Notes: generated by a model not told the origin, from the letters alone. 64,000 nucleotides of DNA from Escherichia coli (GCF_003018255.1 NZ_CP027440.1); one strand, 5' to 3'. Shown: positions 1,278-62,838, counted from the stretch's first letter. Program-made: numbers and translations.

Positions 1278-1457
1278 ATGAAGCAGTTCGGGGAAATCAG
1301 TTGTCGTAATAATTAGCATGATTGGGGGCAATTCTCTGCAGCCCCCGTCACTGCTGGGGTTGAGTCATCTTGACGTCTGCTTTACGGGCGGTTAAGGTGC
1401 CTCTTGTGCGCCAGAAGTGCATATAAACGATAACATTGACCTGTAGACTTGATTATC

Positions 1458-3921: not shown

Positions 3922-4050
3922 GACGAGGTTCCATTATGGTTACAGAAGGGAAGTCCGCTATCAGGGTAACGGGAGATTTACAAAATTCCAACTATTACTG
4001 ATGAAAACGCAGGCTGTTTTTGCAAGACGTGAGATTGCTCTGGAAGGCAT

Positions 4051-4083
4051 AAAAAAAACAGGACCAAAGTCCTGTTTTTTCGG
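4051..4083 (-). terminator. rho-independent terminator of ompF
   Basis: hairpin caggac-caaa-gtcctg with flanking A8/T6 runs immediately 3' of ompF stop. Confidence 0.75.
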
Positions 4084-4105
4084 CATTTAACAAAGAGGTG
4101 TGCTA

Positions 4106-5194: not shown

Positions 5195-5338
5195 TATTTA
5201 TTACCCTCATGGTTTTTTTATGACACCTGCCACTGCCGTCAATAAGTTCTGTCAATAAAAATTTACGGAACTATTGATGAGAGTTTGGTGTCTTTATGTG
5301 TCTGCAGGCATCTTTCCATTCAAACTAACGTTTCGCTA

Positions 5339-5403
5339 CCGTGAAAGTGCTACAAAGATAAAGATTTGGTTTCAAAAAGAAAAAATATGTAACCAAAAGT
5401 AAA
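5339..5403 (-). promoter_or_regulatory. OmpR binding sites F1-F3 of the ompF promoter
   Basis: reverse complement reads tttacttttggttacatattttttctttttgaaaccaaatctttatctttgtagcactttcacgg, matching the OmpR-box array as I recall it. Confidence 0.65.
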
Positions 5404-5753
5404 ATTTAAGGAACTTTGTGAACATCGTCATATTTCCATATAGGCGTGATGATATTTACAGCAATTTTTATCTATTTATATGATTTCCTTATATTTAAAT
5501 TAACTAAACGGAAATTTTGTTTCTGATGGAAACTTTATCGACCTGGCACAAAATCCTCTTTCAGACATCCAGAATGCCAAAAAATAGTATGAAAATTGTG
5601 CTATCAGCTAAGAAAAAACTAATCCGCAATAAGAATGCGGGTTATTTTTTGTGCGTAAATGTTGCAATGTAATATTCCGTAACAGGATGATCGTTATGGC
5701 GGGGTTGCAAATAGATTGCTTGACTTAACAAACAGATAACTTGACAGAAAGGA

Positions 5754-5782
5754 TAAAAAAAGAGCCAGCGGGTGCTGGCTCT
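5754..5782 (-). terminator. rho-independent terminator of asnS
   Basis: stem agagccagc-ggg-tgctggctct; A-run on plus strand gives T-run on coding strand. Confidence 0.7.
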
Positions 5783-5795
5783 TGAAGACGCTAAA

Positions 5796-11445: not shown

Positions 11446-11460
11446 TACTTTTGAGCCAAA

Positions 11461-11612
11461 ATGCCGGATGCGACGCTTGACGCGTCTTATCAGGCCTACA
11501 AGTCCGTTGAAAATGCTGGTTTTGTAGGCTGGATAAGGCGTTCACGCCGCATCCGGCAGCCGTGCCCAAATGCCTGATGCGACGCTTGACGCGTCTTATC
11601 AGGCCTACAATC
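11461..11612. repeat. REP/BIME cluster (three REP units, alternating orientation)
   Basis: gccggatgcgacgcttgacgcgtcttatcaggcctaca at 11463-11500 and near-identical copy at 11572-11610; inverted REP gtaggctggataaggcgttcacgccgcatccggcagc at 11524-11560. Confidence 0.8.
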
Positions 11613-11650
11613 CGTTGAAACTGCTGGTTTTGTGTGCCACATCCGGCATA

Positions 11651-15887: not shown

Positions 15888-16123
15888 ACTCTCTCCTTAT
15901 AACCAATTGTTCTTGTTTTGTTAACATTGATAACAATTCGGTCAGTCTGACAGAGGGCGTCCGCGAGTCGAAATGATTTATCTGAGGAAGAAAAGCCAAA
16001 AAAAGCATAAAAAAAGCGCAATAAGAAAACGTTTGCTATTTATTGCCGCAGGTCAATTCCCTTTTGGTCCGAACTCGCACATAATACGCCCCCGGTTTGC
16101 ACACCGGGAATCCAGGAGAGTTC

Positions 16124-17134
16124 ATGTACTACCCCTTCGTTCGTAAAGCCCTTTTCCAGCTCGATCCAGAGCGCGCTCATGAGTTTACTTTTCAGCAATT
16201 ACGCCGTATTACCGGAACGCCGTTTGAAGCACTGGTGCGGCAGAAAGTGCCTGCGAAACCTGTTAACTGCATGGGCCTGACGTTTAAAAATCCGCTTGGT
16301 CTGGCAGCCGGTCTTGATAAAGACGGGGAGTGCATTGACGCGTTAGGCGCGATGGGATTTGGATCGATCGAGATCGGTACCGTCACGCCACGTCCCCAGC
16401 CAGGTAATGACAAGCCGCGTCTCTTTCGTCTGGTAGATGCCGAAGGTTTGATCAACCGTATGGGCTTTAATAATCTTGGCGTTGATAACCTCGTAGAGAA
16501 CGTAAAAAAAGCCCATTATGACGGCGTTCTGGGTATTAACATCGGCAAAAATAAAGATACGCCGGTGGAGCAGGGTAAAGATGACTATCTGATTTGTATG
16601 GAAAAAATCTATGCCTATGCGGGATATATCGCCATCAATATTTCATCGCCAAATACCCCAGGATTACGCACACTGCAATATGGCGAAGCGCTGGATGATC
16701 TCTTAACCGCGATTAAAAATAAGCAAAATGATTTGCAAGCGATGCACCATAAATATGTGCCGATCGCAGTGAAGATCGCGCCGGATCTTTCTGAAGAAGA
16801 ATTGATCCAGGTTGCCGATAGTTTAGTTCGCCATAATATTGATGGCGTGATTGCAACCAATACCACGCTCGATCGTTCTCTGGTTCAGGGAATGAAAAAT
16901 TGTGATCAAACCGGTGGCTTAAGTGGTCGTCCGCTTCAGTTAAAAAGCACAGAAATTATTCGCCGCTTGTCACAGGAATTAAACGGTCGCTTACCGATCA
17001 TCGGTGTTGGCGGCATTGATTCGGTTATCGCTGCGCGTGAAAAGATTGCTGCGGGGGCCTCACTGGTGCAAATTTATTCTGGTTTTATTTTTAAAGGTCC
17101 GCCGCTGATTAAAGAAATCGTTACCCATATCTAA
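16124..17134 (+). CDS. pyrD: dihydroorotate dehydrogenase (quinone)
   Basis: ORF track 16097..17134; start at ATG 16124 giving [21 protein letters not shown]. Confidence 0.95.
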
Positions 17135-18956: not shown

Positions 18957-19199
18957 GGTGCGGTCCTCAAATGAAAATAAGCCCTCAACTTTATGACATG
19001 ACGCGCTTATTAGCTATAATGCGCAACAATTTTCTTAGCGCCTGTCCCATTAGGCTATTTTATTTGTCAGTTTGGCCCAGGGAAGTGCTCGAAATCCTCA
19101 CGTACTTGTGTACGCTCCGGTTTCTCCGCGCTGTCCATGTCCAGACTGACTGCAACAATTACGCCTACTGCGGTAGGCTCTTAGAGTAAAAGTGACGAT

Positions 19200-26255: not shown

Positions 26256-26815
26256 AAAAGTGGCTAGTGACGATTGCGGCACTGTGGCTGGCCGGATGCA
26301 GCTCCGGCGAAATTAATAAAAACTATTACCAGTTACCTGTGGTGCAGAGCGGTACACAAAGCACCGCCAGCCAGGGTAATCGCCTGTTATGGGTTGAGCA
26401 GGTCGCTGTTCCTGACTATCTGGCGGGGAATGGTGTGGTTTATCAAACCAGTGATGTGAAGTATGTGATTGCCAACAACAACCTGTGGGCCAGCCCGTTG
26501 GATCAACAGTTGCGCAACACTCTGGTTGCCAACCTGAGCACGCAACTGCCCGGCTGGGTGGTTGCCTCCCAGCCTCTGGGAAGCGCCCAGGATACGCTCA
26601 ATGTTACCGTAACGGAGTTTAACGGGCGATATGATGGCAAGGTCATTGTCAGTGGTGAGTGGCTGTTGAACCACCAGGGACAACTGATCAAACGTCCGTT
26701 CCGTCTGGAAGGGGTGCAAACTCAGGATGGTTACGATGAAATGGTTAAAGTGCTGGCCAGTGTCTGGAGTCAGGAAGCCGCTTCTATTGCGCAAGAGATA
26801 AAGCGTCTACCGTAA
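26252..26815 (+). CDS. pqiC: lipoprotein PqiC (YmbA)
   Basis: 187 aa; lipobox LAGCSS; 4-nt overlap with pqiB. Confidence 0.9.
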   Translation: MKKWLVTIAALWLAGCSSGEINKNYYQLPVVQSGTQSTASQGNRLLWVEQVAVPDYLAGNGVVYQTSDVKYVIANNNLWASPLDQQLRNTLVANLSTQLPGWVVASQPLGSAQDTLNVTVTEFNGRYDGKVIVSGEWLLNHQGQLIKRPFRLEGVQTQDGYDEMVKVLASVWSQEAASIAQEIKRLP

Positions 26816-26837
26816 TCATAAAGATTTGTAAATATAA

Positions 26838-26876
26838 CCGTCTCCGGTATGTTGCCTGAGGCGGTTTTTTTGTTTC
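26838..26876 (+). terminator. probable rho-independent terminator after pqiC
   Basis: imperfect GC-rich stem ending in ggcggttttttt. Confidence 0.5.
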
Positions 26877-27070
26877 TAAGGTGCGGAAAAAGTTGTTCCT
26901 CTTCACATTTTTTGTACAACTGACATGCCCGTGTAGCTCACAAATATGACAGTGGCGTGAATTTTGCGCATTGACGGCAGTTATGATTCGCGGTATTGCT
27001 TAACTGTGATTGCACATTTAGTAATCACTGTTTTCTTTTCCACCAGAAACCAGTATGAGGGAAACGAGGC

Positions 27071-27238
27071 ATGAAGAGACAAAAACGAGATCGCCTGGAA
27101 CGGGCACATCAACGTGGTTATCAGGCCGGCATCGCCGGACGCTCAAAAGAAATGTGTCCCTATCAGACGCTGAATCAAAGGTCACAATGGCTGGGAGGCT
27201 GGCGAGAAGCCATGGCGGACAGGGTAGTAATGGCCTGA
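27071..27238 (+). CDS. rmf: ribosome modulation factor (55 aa; below the ORF-track size cutoff)
   Basis: read directly from DNA: MKRQKRDRLERAHQRGYQAGIAGRSKEMCPYQTLNQRSQWLGGWREAMADRVVMA. Confidence 0.93.
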   Translation: MKRQKRDRLERAHQRGYQAGIAGRSKEMCPYQTLNQRSQWLGGWREAMADRVVMA

Positions 27239-27249
27239 TTCTGTCTCTT

Positions 27250-27287
27250 TAAAAAGAAACCTCCGCATTGCGGAGGTTTCGCCTTTT
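27250..27287. terminator. bidirectional terminator between rmf and fabA
   Basis: stem aaacctccgc-attg-cggaggtttc with A-run 5' and T-run 3'. Confidence 0.75.
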
Positions 27288-27307
27288 GATACTCTGTCTG
27301 ATTATAA

Positions 27308-27826
27308 TCAGAAGGCAGACGTATCCTGGAACAGACCGACTTTCAGGTCGCTGGCGGTATAGATCAGACGACCATCAACCAGCACTTCGCCATCTGCCAG
27401 ACCCATAATCAGACGTCGATTAACAATGCGTTTAAAGTGAATACGGTAGGTCACTTTTTTCGCTGTCGGCAGTACCTGACCGGTGAATTTCACTTCGCCA
27501 ACGCCCAGCGCGCGGCCTTTACCTTCGCCGCCCAGCCAGCCGAGGTAGAACCCTACCAGCTGCCACATTGCGTCCAGGCCCAGGCATCCCGGCATAACCG
27601 GATCGCCAATGAAGTGGCATCCGAAGAACCACAGATCCGGATTGATATCCAGTTCTGCTTCAACATACCCTTTGTCGAAGTTACCACCCGTTTCGGTCAT
27701 TTTGACCACACGGTCCATCATCAGCATGTTCGGTGCTGGCAATTGCGGGCCTTTAGCGCCAAACAGTTCACCGCGACCAGAGGCAAGAAGGTCTTCTTTT
27801 GTATAGGATTCGCGTTTATCTACCAT
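27308..27826 (-). CDS. fabA: 3-hydroxydecanoyl-ACP dehydratase/isomerase
   Basis: ORF track 27308..28024; start at ATG giving [23 protein letters not shown]; 172 aa. Confidence 0.95.
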
Positions 27827-30368: not shown

Positions 30369-31421
30369 TTAAGCCTGCGGCTGAGTTACAACGTCTTTGA
30401 TGCCTTTAACTTCGATCTCTACGCGACGATCCGGAGCCAGGCAATCGATCAGTGCAGCACGCTGTTTCACGTTGTCACAGGTGTTGCCAGTAACCGGGTT
30501 GGATTCGCCCATACCACGTGCGGAGATTTTGTCTGCCGGGATACCTTTAGAGATCAGGTAATCAACAACGGACTGAGCACGACGCTCGGACAGAGCCTGG
30601 TTATAAGCGTCAGAACCGATGCGGTCAGTGTAACCCAGAACAACTACGGAACCGTCTTTCGGATCCAGGTTGCTCAGCTGGCTGTACAGCTGATCCAGAG
30701 CAGCCTGACCTTCCGGTTTCAGGGTTGCTTTGTTGAAGGTGAACAGAACGTCAGACTTCAGAGTGAAGTGCTTGGTCTGTACTTCCGGTGCCGGAGCTGG
30801 AGCCGGAGCAACTACTGGAGCTGCTTCGCCCTGACCGAAACGGTAGGAAACACCCAGGCTCAGCATGCCGTTGTCCGGACGAGTGCCGATGGTGTGTGCA
30901 TCACCGATGTTGTTGGTCCACTGGTATTCCAGACGGGTAGCGATTTCAGGAGTGATCGCATACTCAACACCGCCAGCGAAGACCGGAGAAACGCCGGTGT
31001 CGTGGTCTTTAAAGGATGCGCCACCAGGTACGTTAGCCTTGGTGTCTGCACGCCATACCATACCACCCAGACGAGTGTAGATGTCCAGATCGTCAGTGAT
31101 TGGGTAACCCAGTTTAGCGGTCAGCTGAACGCCCTGAGCTTTGTATGCGCCGTTGATGTTGTCGCCTTTGTACGGCATACGACCTAACCAGTCGTAACCC
31201 ATTTCAAAGCCAACATACGGGTTAACCTGGTAACCACCAAAAGCACCTGCACCCAGTTGGTTTTCGTGGGTCGGACCATTGTTAGGAATAAAACCAGTGT
31301 CATGGTACTGGGACCAGCCCAGTTTAGCACCAGTGTACCAGGTGTTATCTTTCGGAGCGGCCTGCGCTACGGTAGCGAAACCAGCCAGTGCCACTGCAAT
31401 CGCGATAGCTGTCTTTTTCAT
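30369..31421 (-). CDS. ompA: outer membrane protein A (variant surface-loop allele)
   Basis: ORF track 30369..31508; start at ATG giving [21 protein letters not shown]; APAPAPAP hinge and OmpA-like C-terminal domain. Confidence 0.95.
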
Positions 31422-31776
31422 TTTTTGCGCCTCGTTATCATCCAAAATACGCCATGAATATCTCCAACGAGATAACACGGTTAAATCCTTCACCGGGGAT
31501 CTGCTCAATATTAACTCTACCGATATCTTCGGCTTATGCCGAGCACCCCTGGCGATGTAAAGTCTACAACGTAGTTGAAAACTTACAAGTGTGAACTCCG
31601 TCAGGCATATGAAAAAAAAGTCTTGTATAAGGTACGTTTAATCTTTTTTGTCAGCGACAATTTACAGAAGAAAATCGCGGAAACCGCTTCAGACAAGCCT
31701 CCGCAAGGAAAATTAGTCACGACTGAAAGCATTGGCTGGGCGACAAAAAAAGTTCCAGGATTAATCCTAAATTTAC

Positions 31777-39312: not shown

Positions 39313-39768
39313 ATGAAAGAAACCGATATTGCAGGCATTTTAACGTCCACTCACACCATTGCGCTGGTGGGGGCAAGCGACAAACCCGATCGTCCCAGCT
39401 ATCGCGTGATGAAATATCTACTCGACCAGGGGTATCACGTCATTCCTGTTTCGCCAAAAGTTGCCGGCAAAACACTGCTGGGCCAGCAGGGGTATGGCAC
39501 GCTGGCAGACGTTCCGGAAAAAGTCGATATGGTCGATGTTTTCCGTAATTCAGAAGCGGCGTGGGGCGTGGCGCAGGAAGCTATCGCCATTGGTGCGAAA
39601 ACCCTCTGGATGCAACTGGGGGTGATTAATGAGCAAGCGGCAGTGCTGGCGCGTGATGCAGGGCTAAACGTGGTGATGGATCGCTGCCCGGCGATTGAGA
39701 TCCCTCGTCTGGGCCTGGCAAAAAAAAAAAATACCCGGAAGGCGAAAACCTTCCGGGTATGTTTATGA
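39313..39768 (+). CDS. yccU: CoA-binding domain protein YccU; C-terminal tail here reads through an A12 tract
   Basis: ORF track 39232..39768; start at ATG 39313 giving [20 protein letters not shown]; reading frame continues ...[19 protein letters not shown] through the terminator hairpin. Confidence 0.85.
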
Positions 39769-42787: not shown

Positions 42788-42957
42788 TGAGTCACTCTCT
42801 ATGACAGATGTAATTAATTAAGCAGCATAATGATAATGTGGGAAGGTACACAGAAGTTTTACCCATCTTTACGCATTTGATCTGAAACAAGTTTCACAGC
42901 GGAGTCTCAGGTCATTAGGCAGTGATATAACGCCCTGAGAATTTCGACAGGCAAAAG

Positions 42958-42990
42958 AAAAAGGGGTTAGCATTTAGCTAACCCCTTATC
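42958..42990 (-). terminator. rho-independent terminator of serT
   Basis: stem aaggggttagc-attt-agctaacccctt; T-run on minus strand immediately 3' of the tRNA. Confidence 0.75.
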
Positions 42991-43083: not shown

Positions 43084-43509
43084 GGAATGACGCGCACTAT
43101 AAACATCCCGATGCAGCGTGTAAACCCCTAATTTGTTTGTTTGCCTGAAAAACAGCCAAAAGTGCATTGATAGCGTGAAATAACAGCAGATTGATCATTT
43201 CATCACCATGAATTCCTTCTCTTTTACTCGTTTAGCAATCGGCTAAACATCCCCACCGCCCGGTAAAAAGAAAAATAGGTCCATTTTTATCGCTAAAAGA
43301 TAAATCCACACAGTTTGTATTGTTTTGTGCAAAAGTTTCACTACGCTTTATTAACAATACTTTCTGGCGACGTGCGCCAGTGCAGAAGGATGAGCTTTCG
43401 TTTTCAGCATCTCACGTGAAGCGATGGTTTGCCTTGCTACAGGGACGTCGCTTGCCGACCATAAGCGCCCGGTGTCCTGCCGGTGTCGCAAGGAGAAGAG
43501 ACGTGCGAT

Positions 43510-44628
43510 ATGAATAACGAGGAAACATTTTACCAGGCCATGCGGCGTCAGGGCGTTACCCGACGCAGCTTTCTCAAATATTGCAGTCTGGCTGCCACGT
43601 CGCTGGGATTAGGCGCGGGGATGGCACCAAAGATTGCCTGGGCGCTGGAGAACAAACCGCGCATTCCGGTGGTATGGATCCACGGTCTGGAATGCACCTG
43701 CTGTACCGAATCTTTTATCCGCTCCGCTCACCCGCTGGCAAAGGACGTCATCCTTTCCCTGATTTCCCTCGATTACGACGATACTTTGATGGCTGCCGCC
43801 GGAACCCAGGCGGAAGAAGTCTTTGAAGACATCATCACGCAATACAATGGCAAATATATCCTCGCAGTAGAAGGTAATCCGCCGCTGGGCGAGCAGGGGA
43901 TGTTCTGTATCAGCAGCGGTCGACCGTTTATTGAGAAACTCAAACGTGCCGCTGCCGGAGCCAGTGCGATTATCGCCTGGGGAACCTGCGCGTCCTGGGG
44001 CTGCGTGCAGGCCGCGCGACCCAATCCGACGCAGGCAACGCCTATCGACAAAGTCATCACCGACAAACCTATTATCAAAGTACCTGGCTGCCCGCCGATC
44101 CCGGATGTGATGAGCGCCATCATTACTTACATGGTGACCTTTGATCGCTTGCCAGATGTCGACAGAATGGGCCGTCCGTTGATGTTCTATGGTCAGCGTA
44201 TCCACGATAAATGCTATCGCCGTGCTCACTTCGACGCCGGAGAGTTCGTCCAGAGTTGGGATGATGACGCTGCCCGCAAAGGTTACTGCCTGTACAAAAT
44301 GGGCTGCAAAGGGCCTACCACCTATAACGCCTGTTCCTCCACACGCTGGAACGATGGCGTTTCCTTCCCGATCCAGTCAGGTCACGGCTGCCTGGGTTGT
44401 GCGGAAAATGGTTTCTGGGATCGCGGTTCGTTCTACAGCCGCGTGGTCGATATTCCACAAATGGGTACCCATTCCACCGCCGACACCGTCGGTTTAACCG
44501 CGCTTGGCGTGGTGGCAGCGGCTGTTGGTGTGCACGCAGTCGCCAGCGCCGTTGACCAGCGCAGGCGTCATAACCAGCAACCTACAGAAACCGAACATCA
44601 GCCAGGCAATGAGGATAAACAGGCATGA
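43510..44628 (+). CDS. hyaA: [NiFe] hydrogenase 1 small subunit, Tat signal
   Basis: ORF track 43483..44628; start at ATG 43510 giving [29 protein letters not shown] (twin-arginine motif). Confidence 0.95.
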
Positions 44629-49110: not shown

Positions 49111-50655
49111 ATGTGGGATGTCATTGATTTATCGCGCTGGCAGTTTGCACTGACCGCGCTGTATCACTTTTTATTTGTACCCCTTACCCTGGGGCTGATT
49201 TTTTTGCTGGCTATCATGGAAACCATTTACGTGGTCACCGGCAAAACAATCTACCGCGATATGACGCGCTTCTGGGGTAAGCTCTTCGGTATCAACTTTG
49301 CTCTTGGCGTGGCTACCGGCCTGACCATGGAGTTTCAGTTTGGTACTAACTGGTCATTCTATTCCAACTATGTGGGCGATATTTTTGGCGCACCGCTGGC
49401 GATGGAAGCATTAATGGCCTTCTTCCTCGAATCCACCTTTGTCGGGCTGTTCTTCTTCGGCTGGCAGCGGCTGAATAAATACCAGCACCTGCTGGTGACG
49501 TGGCTGGTGGCGTTCGGTTCAAATCTCTCTGCATTGTGGATATTGAATGCCAACGGTTGGATGCAATACCCGACCGGTGCGCATTTTGATATCGACACCC
49601 TGCGTATGGAGATGACCAGTTTCAGCGAGTTGGTCTTTAACCCGGTCAGCCAGGTGAAATTTGTGCACACCGTAATGGCGGGCTACGTGACCGGGGCCAT
49701 GTTTATTATGGCGATCAGCGCCTGGTATTTACTGCGCGGACGGGAGCGCGATGTTGCATTACGCTCGTTTGCCATCGGTTCCGTCTTCGGTACTCTGGCG
49801 ATTATCGGCACGCTGCAACTCGGAGACAGTTCTGCGTATGAAGTCGCGCAAGTACAACCGGTAAAACTGGCGGCGATGGAAGGGGAGTGGCAAACGGAAC
49901 CTGCACCTGCACCGTTCCATGTGGTTGCCTGGCCGGAACAGGATCAAGAGCGTAACGCCTTTGCTATCAAAATTCCCGCGCTGCTAGGGATCCTCGCCAC
50001 TCACTCATTAGATAAACCCGTGCCGGGTCTGAAGAATTTGATGGCTGAAACCTACCCACGCTTGCAACGCGGACGTATGGCCTGGCTGTTAATGCAGGAA
50101 ATATCGCAAGGCAATCGAGAGCCGCATGTGTTGCAGGCATTCCGGGAGCTGGAAGGCGACCTGGGCTACGGCATGTTGCTCTCCCGCTATGCGCCGGATA
50201 TGAATCATGTCACAGCCGCACAGTACCAGGCGGCGATGCGTGGCGCGATACCTCAGGTTGCGCCGGTATTCTGGAGTTTCCGCATCATGGTGGGCTGTGG
50301 TTCCCTGCTGCTACTGGTGATGCTGATTGCGCTTGTCCAGACGCTGCGTGGCAAAATCGACCAGCATCGCTGGGTGCTGAAAATGGCGCTCTGGAGTTTG
50401 CCGCTGCCGTGGATTGCGATTGAAGCCGGGTGGTTTATGACCGAGTTTGGTCGTCAGCCGTGGGCGATACAGGACATCTTACCGACATACTCCGCGCACT
50501 CCGCCTTAACCACAGGACAACTGGCTTTCTCACTGATCATGATCGTAGGGCTTTACACCCTGTTCTTAATCGCCGAAGTCTACCTGATGCAGAAATATGC
50601 CCGTCTGGGGCCGAGCGCGATGCAGAGTGAACAACCGACGCAGCAACAGGGGTAA
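49111..50655 (+). CDS. appC: cytochrome bd-II ubiquinol oxidase subunit I
   Basis: ORF track 49105..50655; start giving [20 protein letters not shown]. Confidence 0.95.
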
Positions 50656-50666
50656 AGGAGAAAATC

Positions 50667-51803
50667 ATGTTTGATTATGAAACATTGCGCTTCATCTGGT
50701 GGCTGCTGATTGGCGTGATCCTGGTGGTCTTTATGATATCCGACGGATTTGACATGGGGATCGGCTGTCTGCTGCCGCTGGTGGCGCGTAATGATGATGA
50801 ACGTCGGATAGTGATAAACAGCGTTGGCGCGCACTGGGAAGGCAATCAGGTCTGGTTAATCCTCGCAGGTGGCGCATTATTTGCCGCCTGGCCCAGAGTG
50901 TATGCAGCGGCGTTTTCCGGCTTTTATGTGGCGATGATTCTGGTGCTGTGCTCGCTGTTCTTCCGCCCGCTGGCCTTTGATTATCGCGGAAAAATCGCCG
51001 ATGCACGCTGGCGTAAAATGTGGGATGCCGGACTGGTCATCGGCAGTCTGGTGCCGCCGGTAGTCTTCGGTATCGCCTTCGGCAACTTGCTGCTCGGCGT
51101 GCCGTTTGCCTTCACACCGCAATTACGCGTGGAATATCTCGGCAGTTTTTGGCAACTGCTGACGCCATTCCCTTTATTGTGCGGATTGCTCAGCCTTGGG
51201 ATGGTGATTTTGCAAGGTGGCGTCTGGTTACAACTGAAAACTGTTGGTGTGATTCATCTGCGTTCACAGCTGGCGACTAAACGCGCTGCACTACTGGTGA
51301 TGCTGTGCTTTTTGCTGGCGGGTTACTGGCTGTGGGTCGGTATTGATGGCTTTGTACTGCTCGCCCAGGATGCTAACGGTCCTTCCAATCCGTTAATGAA
51401 ACTGGTGGCAGTGCTACCTGGTGCCTGGATGAATAATTTCGTCGAATCGCCCGTTTTGTGGATCTTCCCGCTGCTGGGGTTCTTCTGCCCATTGCTGACG
51501 GTGATGGCGATTTATCGTGGTCGCCCGGGTTGGGGATTTTTGATGGCGTCATTGATGCAATTTGGCGTGATTTTCACGGCAGGCATCACGCTGTTCCCCT
51601 TTGTCATGCCGTCAAGCGTGAGTCCGATCTCCAGCCTGACGTTGTGGGACAGCACTTCCAGTCAGCTGACGCTGAGCATTATGTTGGTAATCGTGCTGAT
51701 ATTTTTGCCCATTGTGTTGCTCTACACTCTCTGGAGCTACTACAAAATGTGGGGGCGCATGACGACAGAAACTCTCCGCCGTAACGAAAACGAGCTGTAC
51801 TAA
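50667..51803 (+). CDS. appB: cytochrome bd-II ubiquinol oxidase subunit II
   Basis: 378 aa; [23 protein letters not shown]. Confidence 0.95.
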
Positions 51804-51815
51804 GGAGCAGGAACA

Positions 51816-51908
51816 ATGTGGTATTTACTTTGGTTCGTCGGCATTTTGTTGATGTGTTCGCTCTCCACCCTTGTGTTGGTATGGCTGGACCCGCGTCTGA
51901 AAAGTTAA
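51816..51908 (+). CDS. appX: cytochrome bd-II small subunit AppX (30 aa; below the ORF-track cutoff)
   Basis: read from DNA: MWYLLWFVGILLMCSLSTLVLVWLDPRLKS, preceded by aaggag RBS. Confidence 0.85.
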   Translation: MWYLLWFVGILLMCSLSTLVLVWLDPRLKS

Positions 51909-51987
51909 CGAACGTAAGCCTGATGTGGCGCATTAGCATCTCATCAGGCAATCAATAATGTCAGATATGAAAAGCGGAAACATATCG

Positions 51988-60708: not shown

Positions 60709-60814
60709 CTTTAATCCTTGAAAGGTTAATTAAAAAAATGCAAATCTCTAAAGCCCGGTACGAATATCGCAACCGGGTATCATTTAACTTTAATTTTGAC
60801 GCGTTAAAGCAGTA

Positions 60815-61120
60815 TTAGCGCGTAGTGGACGTGGTGGTTGAGGTGTTATGAGAACCGCCATCGCCACTGTCATTTGCTGCAACTACTGCCAACGTCGCCA
60901 CACCAACAGCCGTTGCCACACCGACAACCGTCGCCGTGCCGACAGCGCCAGCAGCCACGCCACCAGTGGTAGCAGCAGTCGTGGTTGCACCTGTAGTGGT
61001 CGTTGTGGTGCCAGTAGTACCCGTCGTTGCCTCAGTCCCGTTTGCTGCTTCAGGGGCAGCAAATGCAGCTGGCGTCGTCAACATGAAGGCCATAAGGATT
61101 GCAGAAAGCTTGTGTTTCAT
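60815..61120 (-). CDS. gfcA: Thr-rich secreted protein GfcA (YmcD)
   Basis: ORF track 60815..61138; start giving MKHKLSAILMAFMLTTPAAFA; Thr/Gly/Ala/Val low-complexity body. Confidence 0.88.
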   Translation of the reverse strand: MKHKLSAILMAFMLTTPAAFAAPEAANGTEATTGTTGTTTTTTGATTTAATTGGVAAGAVGTATVVGVATAVGVATLAVVAANDSGDGGSHNTSTTTSTTR

Positions 61121-61560
61121 AACTTTTCCTTTATTCATCGCATGGACAATACGTACGCTTGAGATCAGGATTATCTACTTTGAGTATAACATCCTTGTGA
61201 AATCTCCCTTTCCTCATACCGCCAGCACTATATACTGCGGGTGGGAAAGGCGCGCAGAGGGAAATATAAGATTGTTAACTATTCCCCTCTGGAAATACGA
61301 CTTGTGAGCATAAGATAAATCTTAGCAAAATACAAATTAAAGATAAGAAAATTGTTAAGAAAGCTATTAACTATTGTTGGTAATATAGTTTCAAGTGGTA
61401 CTATAACTGGCTGTTAAGTGGCATTTATAACTATTAGGTGCAGAGATATTCGCTTAAATGGATTTGTTGCCCGGTGAAAAAGTAACTTGCGTTATAATTT
61501 ATGGTGTTGACTATTGAGCTATTCCAATAAAACCAGCCAACTTTAAACAAGCAACTCATA

Positions 61561-62058: not shown

Positions 62059-62271
62059 ATGTCTAATAAAATGACTGGTTTAGTAAAATGGTTTAACGCA
62101 GATAAAGGTTTTGGCTTTATCACTCCTGATGATGGCAGCAAAGACGTTTTCGTCCATTTCACCGCCATCCAGAGCAATGAATTCCGCACGCTGAACGAAA
62201 ATCAGAAAGTTGAATTTTCTATTGAGCAGGGGCAACGTGGTCCCGCGGCAGCGAACGTTGTTACGCTCTAA
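62059..62271 (+). CDS. cspG: cold shock protein CspG
   Basis: 70 aa; [23 protein letters not shown] (RNP1 motif). Confidence 0.95.
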
Positions 62272-62470
62272 GGTTGCCGTTATTACTCCACATCTCCATT
62301 TCCGCTGTCCATGTTGTCATGGTTCACAGTACCGCACATCGGCATTCGATGTGACGGAGCGAAATCCTTTAGGGGCAAAGTGTATTTTTTGTAAATCGAC
62401 GATGATCACCTTTGATAACGTCGCGCTGCAAATACGCACTGACCATGCGCCGCTGGATTTCACAAAATAA
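62237..62470 (+). CDS. ymcE: small Cys-rich protein YmcE; start codon uncertain (non-ATG)
   Basis: ORF track 62210..62470; contains ...[21 protein letters not shown]...; no in-frame ATG near 5' end, GTG at 62237 chosen. Confidence 0.5.
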
Positions 62471-62664
62471 TATCAGGCTCCCTCGTGGAGCCTTTTTTAT
62501 ATCTGCCTTATTTTTCTTCAACGCTGTATGTATAGTAAGCGATAACCTGTTGATTATTGAATCTTTCGGGGAGATGGCTTATAACATTTCTTACCTGACC
62601 AGGGTACCGGGAACCAACACCTTACTGGCGTGTTGCTGTCTTTCAAGACCAGAAGAGGTTAACA

Positions 62665-62838
62665 GTGAATATTGAAGAGTTAAAAAAACAAGCCGAAACG
62701 GAAATCGCTGACTTTATCGCGCAAAAAATCGCCGAGCTGAACAAGAATACAGGGAAAGAAGTCTCTGAAATTCGCTTCACCGCACGAGAAAAAATGACCG
62801 GGCTTGAAAGTTATGATGTCAAAATCAAAATAATGTGA
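62665..62838 (+). CDS. gnsA: GnsA (57 aa; GTG start; below the ORF-track cutoff)
   Basis: read from DNA: (M)NIEELKKQAETEIADFIAQKIAELNKNTGKEVSEIRFTAREKMTGLESYDVKIKIM. Confidence 0.85.
   Translation: MNIEELKKQAETEIADFIAQKIAELNKNTGKEVSEIRFTAREKMTGLESYDVKIKIM

Follow-up and report, generated by a model that had tools for sequence, protein, structure and literature searches.

Three known small protein genes below the 60-codon cut-off of an ORF list, and large gaps of probably regulatory content, in a 64,000-nucleotide segment of the Escherichia coli chromosome

Introduction

Ribosome modulation factor (RMF) is a basic protein of 55 residues that is produced in stationary phase. Its site is on the 30S subunit, near the anti-Shine-Dalgarno 3' end of the 16S rRNA, and its effect is to turn 70S ribosomes into dimers, the translationally silent 100S particles of hibernation. 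The mRNA of rmf is known for its high stability. AppX, a product of the appCB-appX operon, consists of a single transmembrane helix and is the third subunit that completes cytochrome bd-II. GnsA is a small soluble protein whose overproduction alters the unsaturation of phospholipid acyl chains; GnsA and YmcE are classed as a putative toxin-antitoxin pair, with GnsA as the putative toxin.

Here we consider a stretch of 64,000 nucleotides of Escherichia coli (GCF_003018255.1, NZ_CP027440.1), denoted as the window, in which all coordinates are counted from the first letter. According to the reading that we favor, the window is a segment of ordinary E. coli chromosome, and its three short open reading frames (ORFs) are the well-characterised genes rmf, appX (also named cbdX) and gnsA. 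A first-pass annotation had read these three genes directly in the DNA, had remarked that they are absent from the supplied ORF list, and had suggested that other ORFs of less than 60 aa may be hidden in five of the larger intergenic regions (5195-5795, 26816-27070, 31509-31776, 43084-43509 and 61121-61560). We consider it very probable that the three ORFs are indeed rmf, appX and gnsA, and that the large gaps consist of regulatory DNA and RNA rather than of hidden genes.

Materials and methods

Relatives of rmf were sought by scanning one genome per species. The scan resulted in 529 loci confirmed by tblastn, the best 80 of which were kept, along with 10 kb of flanking sequence on either side. 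Each of the nine gaps between ycbX and sxy was aligned in 64 to 73 Enterobacterales sequences, the window included. Loci for the seven gaps between ldtD and ssuB were obtained via relatives of OmpF, and here sequences of seven other genera and two E. coli were aligned. In the last third of the window, which has the hya, app, gfc and csp genes, comparison was mostly among near-identical E. coli sequences, supplemented by single Salmonella upstream regions of hyaA and yccA.

Gaps were derived from the gene map; those of 40 bp or more number 35 and have a total length of 6250 bp. Within these, ORFs of at least 10 codons were enumerated from ATG, GTG and TTG starts; the shuffle test considers ORFs of at least 15 codons and preserves dinucleotides. 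The strength of a Shine-Dalgarno (SD) sequence is given as the energy of its duplex with the anti-SD, on a scale in which the annotated genes of the window have a median of -5.8 kcal/mol and random start codons have -2.4 kcal/mol. Ribosome-profiling data were taken from Table S4 of Fesenko et al. 2024 (PMC11188072), a catalogue of small ORFs of Enterobacteriaceae. The cultures used for profiling were grown aerobically in rich medium, a condition in which the hya, app, gfc and cold-shock genes are poorly expressed.

Genomic context of the window

The window corresponds to the segment of the E. coli chromosome from ldtD to yccM. BLAST mapping places the genes of K-12 in colinear order, with 94-100% identity per gene, and among complete genomes the closest one found, NZ_AP025214.2, aligns colinearly with the window at 98.9% identity. 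A query of 1.2 kb round rmf, comprising the features pqiC, rmf and fabA, matches 5425 of the 5426 complete E. coli genomes with 95-100% identity.

Several differences in gene content are observed. Compared to K-12, the window is without the seven-gene elf fimbrial operon in the interval between ssuE and pyrD (15888-16123), and without IS1D in the interval between gfcA and cspH (61121-61560), which in K-12 is interrupted by IS1. The gfc-etp-etk cluster is present in the window and missing from 536-type strains, where appA abuts cspH. About one third of the E. coli genomes have neither the gfcA-cspH gap nor the gfc cluster as a whole: among the 5411 genomes with a match, 3538 span 80% or more of the query. 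The gap between pepN and ssuB (11455-11635), in which K-12 differs greatly, holds a repeat of about 70 nt in two copies that are 94% alike; one of these copies coincides with an Rfam call for naRNA4, a nucleoid-associated RNA (11527-11605). In a Salmonella sequence (locus L119, 4994-9362) the pathogenicity-island genes sopB (IpgD family), pipC, pipB and pipA are found directly upstream of yccA, where E. coli has serT and the hya operon.

Two further observations concern individual genes. In yccU (39724-39768), where K-12, 536/Combat2C1 and AP025214 have the stop codon TAA, the window has AAA, within a run of 12 A. With the stop lost, the ORF continues for another 14 codons through the terminator hairpin between yccU and hspQ. 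Either the allele has genuinely lost its stop, or the homopolymer was sequenced wrongly. The gene ompA (30369-31421) has 350 codons (1053 nt) compared to 346 in K-12, with an identity of 95%; the same length is found in 2017.09.02CC. An overlapping gene of 603 bp, denoted pop, has been claimed antisense to ompA in EHEC (PMC7103648); the ORFs antisense to ompA in the window have 139 and 71 aa (30768-31187 and 30865-31080, respectively).

The three small genes and their neighbors

Family models (Pfam and NCBIfam), solved structures, curated annotation and conservation agree that rmf, appX and gnsA are genuine small protein genes at the positions given in the first-pass annotation. The gene rmf (27071-27238, +) starts with ATG and encodes the 55 aa of ribosome modulation factor (translation MKRQKRDRLERAHQRGYQAGIAGRSKEMCPYQTLNQRSQWLGGWREAMADRVVMA, followed by the stop). 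The protein matches Pfam PF04957 with 79.6 bits (cut-off 27.9, E-value 1.7e-22) and the NCBIfam equivalog NF011162 with 92.1 bits (cut-off 40). Residues 1-55 match chains named 'Ribosome modulation factor' in the PDB entries 6h4n (chain v), 6h58, 9iot and 4v8g, with E-values of about 3e-34. Its SD sequence, GAGGG (27057-27061, +), is located 9 nt ahead of the ATG and forms an anti-SD duplex of -6.1 kcal/mol. The best 80 of the 529 rmf loci mostly exhibit the same gene order, pqiC-rmf-fabA-ycbZ-matP-ompA-sulA-sxy. Of the 70 Enterobacterales loci aligned, 68 have the ORF intact, and in this alignment the substitutions at codon positions 1, 2 and 3 amount to 335, 238 and 1050, respectively. The start codon of rmf also coincides with initiation peaks in profiling data, with 129 reads (retapamulin) and 27 reads (Onc112) in MG1655 and 177 in BL21, and the dN/dS ratio of the gene is 0.10 (PMC11188072, Table S4).

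The gene appX (51816-51908, +) encodes the accessory subunit of cytochrome bd-II oxidase, a protein of 30 aa (translation MWYLLWFVGILLMCSLSTLVLVWLDPRLKS, followed by the stop). The oxidase genes are arranged in the order appC (49111-50655), appB (50667-51803) and appX, with appX following 12 nt after appB, and the SD of appX reaches -8.3 kcal/mol. The protein matches Pfam PF08173 (YbgT_YccB) with 45.4 bits (cut-off 26.2, E-value 8.5e-12) as well as the NCBIfam equivalog CbdX (NF011333) with 80.8 bits against a cut-off of 57, and its residues 1-30 match AppX chains of 30 residues in the PDB entries 7ose (chain C) and 7oy2 (chain X).

The gene gnsA (62665-62838, +) starts with GTG and encodes 57 aa (VNIEELKKQ...KIKIM), with an SD of -6.5 kcal/mol. 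Pfam PF08178 (GnsAB_toxin) is matched over all of its positions (1-54 of 54) with 122.3 bits (cut-off 27, E-value 7.6e-36), and residues 1-57 match the chains named 'Protein GnsA' of the PDB entries 4xo1 and 4xo2; among the NCBIfam models none covers GnsA. The label 'toxin' is a family name. In one E. coli assembly (locus L112, 1437-1571), gnsA is called with 44 aa instead of 57, possibly a truncated allele.

The genes upstream of gnsA are small as well. The partner gene ymcE (62445-62675, +; 76 aa), whose 3' end overlaps gnsA by 11 nt, matches the NCBIfam equivalog NF007379 with 186.8 bits and Pfam PF15939 (YmcE_antitoxin). A fourth small gene, which had gone unmentioned in the first-pass annotation, is ymcF (62282-62470, +; 62 aa), mapped from K-12 b4723 and part of the cluster cspG-ymcF-ymcE-gnsA. 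It starts with ATT, in K-12 as in the window, and its product matches the Pfam model YmcF-like with 162.6 bits (E-value 2.4e-48). The protein is zinc-ribbon-like, with the pattern CxCC...CxxC. A literature search on ymcF found no source paper.

Flanking signals of rmf

The intergenic region between pqiC and rmf contains the pqiC terminator, a promoter assigned to rmf, a conserved hairpin with a U-tract, and the SD of rmf. The terminator of pqiC, a hairpin followed by a T-run, is a terminator-like match at 26851-26872 (+). As a consensus scanner gave no call, the promoter of rmf is one that we infer: it is placed at 26971-26999 (+) and comprises the -35 element TTGACG, a variable spacer of 17 nt, and the weak -10 element TATTGC. 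In 70 species the two hexamers are conserved on either side of the variable spacer, and the block ATGAGGGAAACGAGGCATG at the SD is about 90-100% conserved.

The leader hairpin (27006-27039, +) is located at the presumed 5' end of the rmf mRNA. Its stem (27006-27013 paired with 27021-27028) is followed by a U-rich tract, constituting a terminator-like match, and hairpin and U-tract are 90-100% conserved. The pair 27009:27025 shows compensatory change, being A-T in 25 sequences, G-C in 31 and G-T in 7. The hairpin matches no Rfam family. Probably it accounts for the high stability of the rmf mRNA. Downstream, the convergent genes rmf and fabA share a bidirectional intrinsic terminator (27256-27280) with a stem of 11 bp on both strands.

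Probable regulatory content of the gaps, and the hya leader

The five regions named in the first-pass annotation are, with regard to their boundaries, largely accurate. Four are delimited correctly, and the left edge of the ompA-sulA gap is misplaced. Mapping of the K-12 genes sets the start of ompA at 31421 rather than 31508, such that the true gap is 31422-31776; the error arises because the listed ompA ORF is an artefact of extension to a TTG. The large gaps appear to be filled with regulatory DNA and RNA, namely promoters (rmf, rlmL, ompA, ompF and hya), structured 5' leaders (rmf, ompA and cspG) and terminators. For example, the ompA-sulA gap contains the ompA promoter and a structured leader, and the cspH-cspG gap contains the leader of cspG, a cspA-type thermoregulator (Rfam, 155 bits).

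The gap between serT and hyaA includes a hya leader of about 150 nt. The segment 43300-43327 is presumably the IscR operator of the hya promoter, matched to the sequence of the published site. The leader harbors an ORF of 29 codons that extends from an ATG at 43424 to a TGA at 43513, and its stop overlaps the start of hyaA as ATGA. Such an ORF might be regulatory: termination at the start of hyaA would couple or tune the translation of hyaA, and the act of translating would matter, not the peptide. Consistent with this possibility, the ORF is located downstream of the presumed IscR site and therefore probably within the transcript, its stop shares the ATGA with hyaA, and its ATG and first 15 or so codons align with an ATG-initiated Salmonella ORF that likewise ends on the start region of hyaA. 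However, the ORF has no SD (+0.2 kcal/mol), and between the two genera compared, E. coli and Salmonella, an indel of 8 nt shifts the frame, leaving C-terminal halves that are unrelated. In E. coli 536 and one other E. coli sequence of the same haplotype (L101), the ORF stops 20 nt short of hyaA, at a TAG that results from the substitution A43490T. No initiation peak is listed for it in Table S4 of PMC11188072, and since some 35 ORFs of this gap were tested, a coincidence of this kind is to be expected once. Within E. coli, the gap exhibits 23 variable columns among 14 sequences, too few to decide. Regulation by this ORF thus has a slim chance of being real. The broader proposition, that either the hya ORF regulates hyaA or a very short ORF, or one with a non-canonical start, in the hya, gfc and csp gaps encodes a micro-protein, is to be rated as improbable to the same degree. 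The preferred reading of these gaps remains that of regulatory DNA and RNA.

Search for further small genes

A second alternative to regulatory gaps is that at least one of the five named gaps hides a functional, unannotated gene for a protein of less than 60 aa. Short ORFs are certainly abundant, with 41 of at least 15 codons within the five gaps, but their number as well as the frequency of ribosome binding sites (RBS) match those of shuffled sequences. The 35 gaps contain 344 starts that open ORFs of at least 10 codons, corresponding to 208 distinct ORFs, and for 22 of these starts the SD equals or exceeds the median strength found in real genes, a proportion near the background of about 7-8% at random start codons. 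The five gaps have 41 ORFs of at least 15 codons compared to 40.5 ± 4.4 in shuffles, and 3 ORFs with an SD compared to 3.4 ± 1.8. For all 35 gaps the respective values are 98 (91.8 ± 6.8) and 9 (8.1 ± 2.9). Since observed counts equal those of the shuffles, the ORFs in the gaps are present at chance frequency. The log-likelihood of codon usage was dropped as uninformative and cannot exclude ORFs in the gaps, given that even rmf, ymcF and ymcE receive negative scores.

Conservation provides a sharper distinction. The cross-genus alignments comprise 79 candidates in the vicinity of rmf and 94 in that of ompF, and none of these unites preservation of start, frame and stop with the excess of third-position substitutions typical of coding sequence. 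The curated annotation of K-12 and the PGAP annotation of the sampled genomes likewise place no gene in the named gaps.

Profiling yields weak signals in favor of translation. Weak retapamulin peaks, in K-12 or BL21, correspond to window positions 1318-1395, 3995-4093, 5517-5672, 26770-26919 (-) and 60738-60818. In MG1655, three intergenic ORFs between 926 kb and 1062 kb have start peaks (PMC11188072, Table S4): 982934-983009, which is window 1318-1395 and has a dN/dS of 0.75; 1020072-1020141 in the ompA leader, with a dS of 0; and a third inside IS1D, which is absent from the window. In BL21 there are weak peaks, at dN/dS values between 1.0 and 24, in the gaps aspC-ompF, ompF-asnS, pqiC-rmf (minus strand) and gfcB-gfcA (PMC11188072). 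But the ORFs with peaks in the gaps have dN/dS ratios from 0.67 to more than 10, or a dS of 0; that is, for the intergenic peaks of K-12 and BL21 in this region, purifying selection is not seen, all having a dN/dS of at least 0.67 or a dS of 0. Of the 70 species aligned, not one has an intact copy of the minus-strand ORF between pqiC and rmf. Neither Weaver nor Stringer names a ymb, ymc, ycb or ycc gene in the main text, and the smORFer supplement contains nothing relevant to the region.

Several individual candidates were considered and rejected. The highest RBS scores among the ORFs of the gaps belong to terminator stems. The ORF 27286-27408 has an apparent SD of -10.2 kcal/mol, a falsely strong RBS that arises because the 'SD' is the GGAGGT arm of the terminator stem between rmf and fabA. 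For the ORF 42869-42973 (SD -7.9 kcal/mol), the 'SD' and the ATG are the stem and the loop of the serT terminator, GGGGTTAGC...GCTAACCCC, and 11 of the 14 E. coli sequences compared have the ORF shortened to 18 codons. An ORF of 57 aa over the PyrD leader (15973-16146) exhibits strongly non-coding composition and has no family match. The most 'conserved' candidate, an ORF of 12 codons at 18991-19029 (-), is intact in 61 of 66 species and has no third-position bias (181/176/120). On the opposite strand is the promoter of rlmL (18985-19035, +), found in about 65 Enterobacterales species with ATGACA, a spacer of 17 nt, a perfect TATAAT and a GC-rich discriminator (GCGC); 8 of the 17 nt of the spacer vary freely. 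The ORF stays in frame because the length of this spacer is fixed. The next best candidate, 31564-31608 (-), is situated in the ompA promoter region, which is 96% conserved, with substitutions of 151/104/78. For the catalogued ORF in the ompA leader (K-12 and BL21; window 31440-31509, -), the TTG start is out of frame here, because a C5 run of K-12 is C4 in the window. The C4 variant is also found in 536, Combat2C1, 2017.09.02CC and E. albertii, and across genera the ompA leader has indels without preservation of a reading frame.

In summary of this search, a lowered codon minimum, RBS scoring and the intersection with ribosome profiling, as proposed in the first-pass annotation, were run and extended by conservation across genera, and no further small gene emerged. 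Where the named gaps are properly testable, no additional conserved ORF with an RBS signal was found in them, and the suggestion of hidden genes thus fails on its own terms. That one of the five gaps nevertheless conceals a functional small gene is very improbable, and regulatory sequence remains the preferred account of the gaps.

Effects of the ORF cut-off

A check of the mechanical ORF list, which starts at 60 aa, confirmed that rmf, appX and gnsA are all missing from it, and the reason is the cut-off of 60 codons. The list instead contains ORFs that mislead. Antisense to appX it has an ORF of 90 aa (51679-51951, -), and beside gnsA it has versions of ymcF and ymcE extended to a TTG. The gene ymcF is represented only as the 86-aa extended ORF 62210-62470, which overlaps cspG; as the start of ymcF is ATT, ORF finders that consider ATG, GTG and TTG cannot delimit this gene at any cut-off in length. 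At the rmf locus, the list has an ORF of 65 aa in another frame over rmf (27055-27252, +), and that this ORF, although it begins with ATG and is the only one there to reach 60 aa, should be the real gene in place of the 55-aa frame has practically no probability: it has no Pfam match and no SD (+0.2 kcal/mol), it is intact in just 20 of 70 species, and its substitutions by codon position (1114/431/354) are concentrated on its first position, a pattern that results from the third position of rmf being read one frame off and that refutes the 65-aa reading.

Discussion

As a methodological lesson, we note that an ORF track with a fixed minimum of 60 codons conceals real genes, and at the rmf locus supplies a decoy in the wrong frame instead. 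Lowering the cut-off alone adds only chance ORFs, and scoring of RBS gave false positives that arose from terminator stems. The combination of conservation and codon-position analysis cleanly set rmf apart from about 200 chance ORFs. The three genes are already known: they are annotated and structurally solved, and biologically nothing new is added.

The closest catalogue for the ORFs in the gaps is that of Fesenko et al. 2024 (PMC11188072), in which several ORFs from gaps of the window occur as the same sequences with weak start-codon peaks. In contrast to rmf (dN/dS 0.10), these catalogued ORFs are without purifying selection and are not kept across genera in the alignments made here.

The three genes themselves are annotated at the corresponding places in the curated annotation of K-12 and in PGAP genomes, and the identity of their DNA to K-12 is 100% (rmf), 100% (appX) and 99.4% (gnsA). 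GnsA of K-12 (b4517) has the same length of 57 aa, the same GTG start and the same 11-nt overlap with ymcE. AppX has the identical 30 aa as AppX/CbdX of K-12 (b4592) and the same place directly 3' of appB. CydX of cytochrome bd-I, in comparison, is distant: its model TIGR02106 gives 18.9 bits, below the cut-off of 31.6, and the match to 6rko has an E-value of 0.009. The distant match to CydX therefore assigns AppX as the paralogue of bd-II and not of bd-I. RMF of K-12 (b0953) is the same protein of 55 aa, encoded by identical DNA between the same neighbors (pqiC-rmf-fabA), with no detectable difference. We assume, from this identity to the characterised protein, that RMF of the window would likewise induce the formation of 100S dimers.
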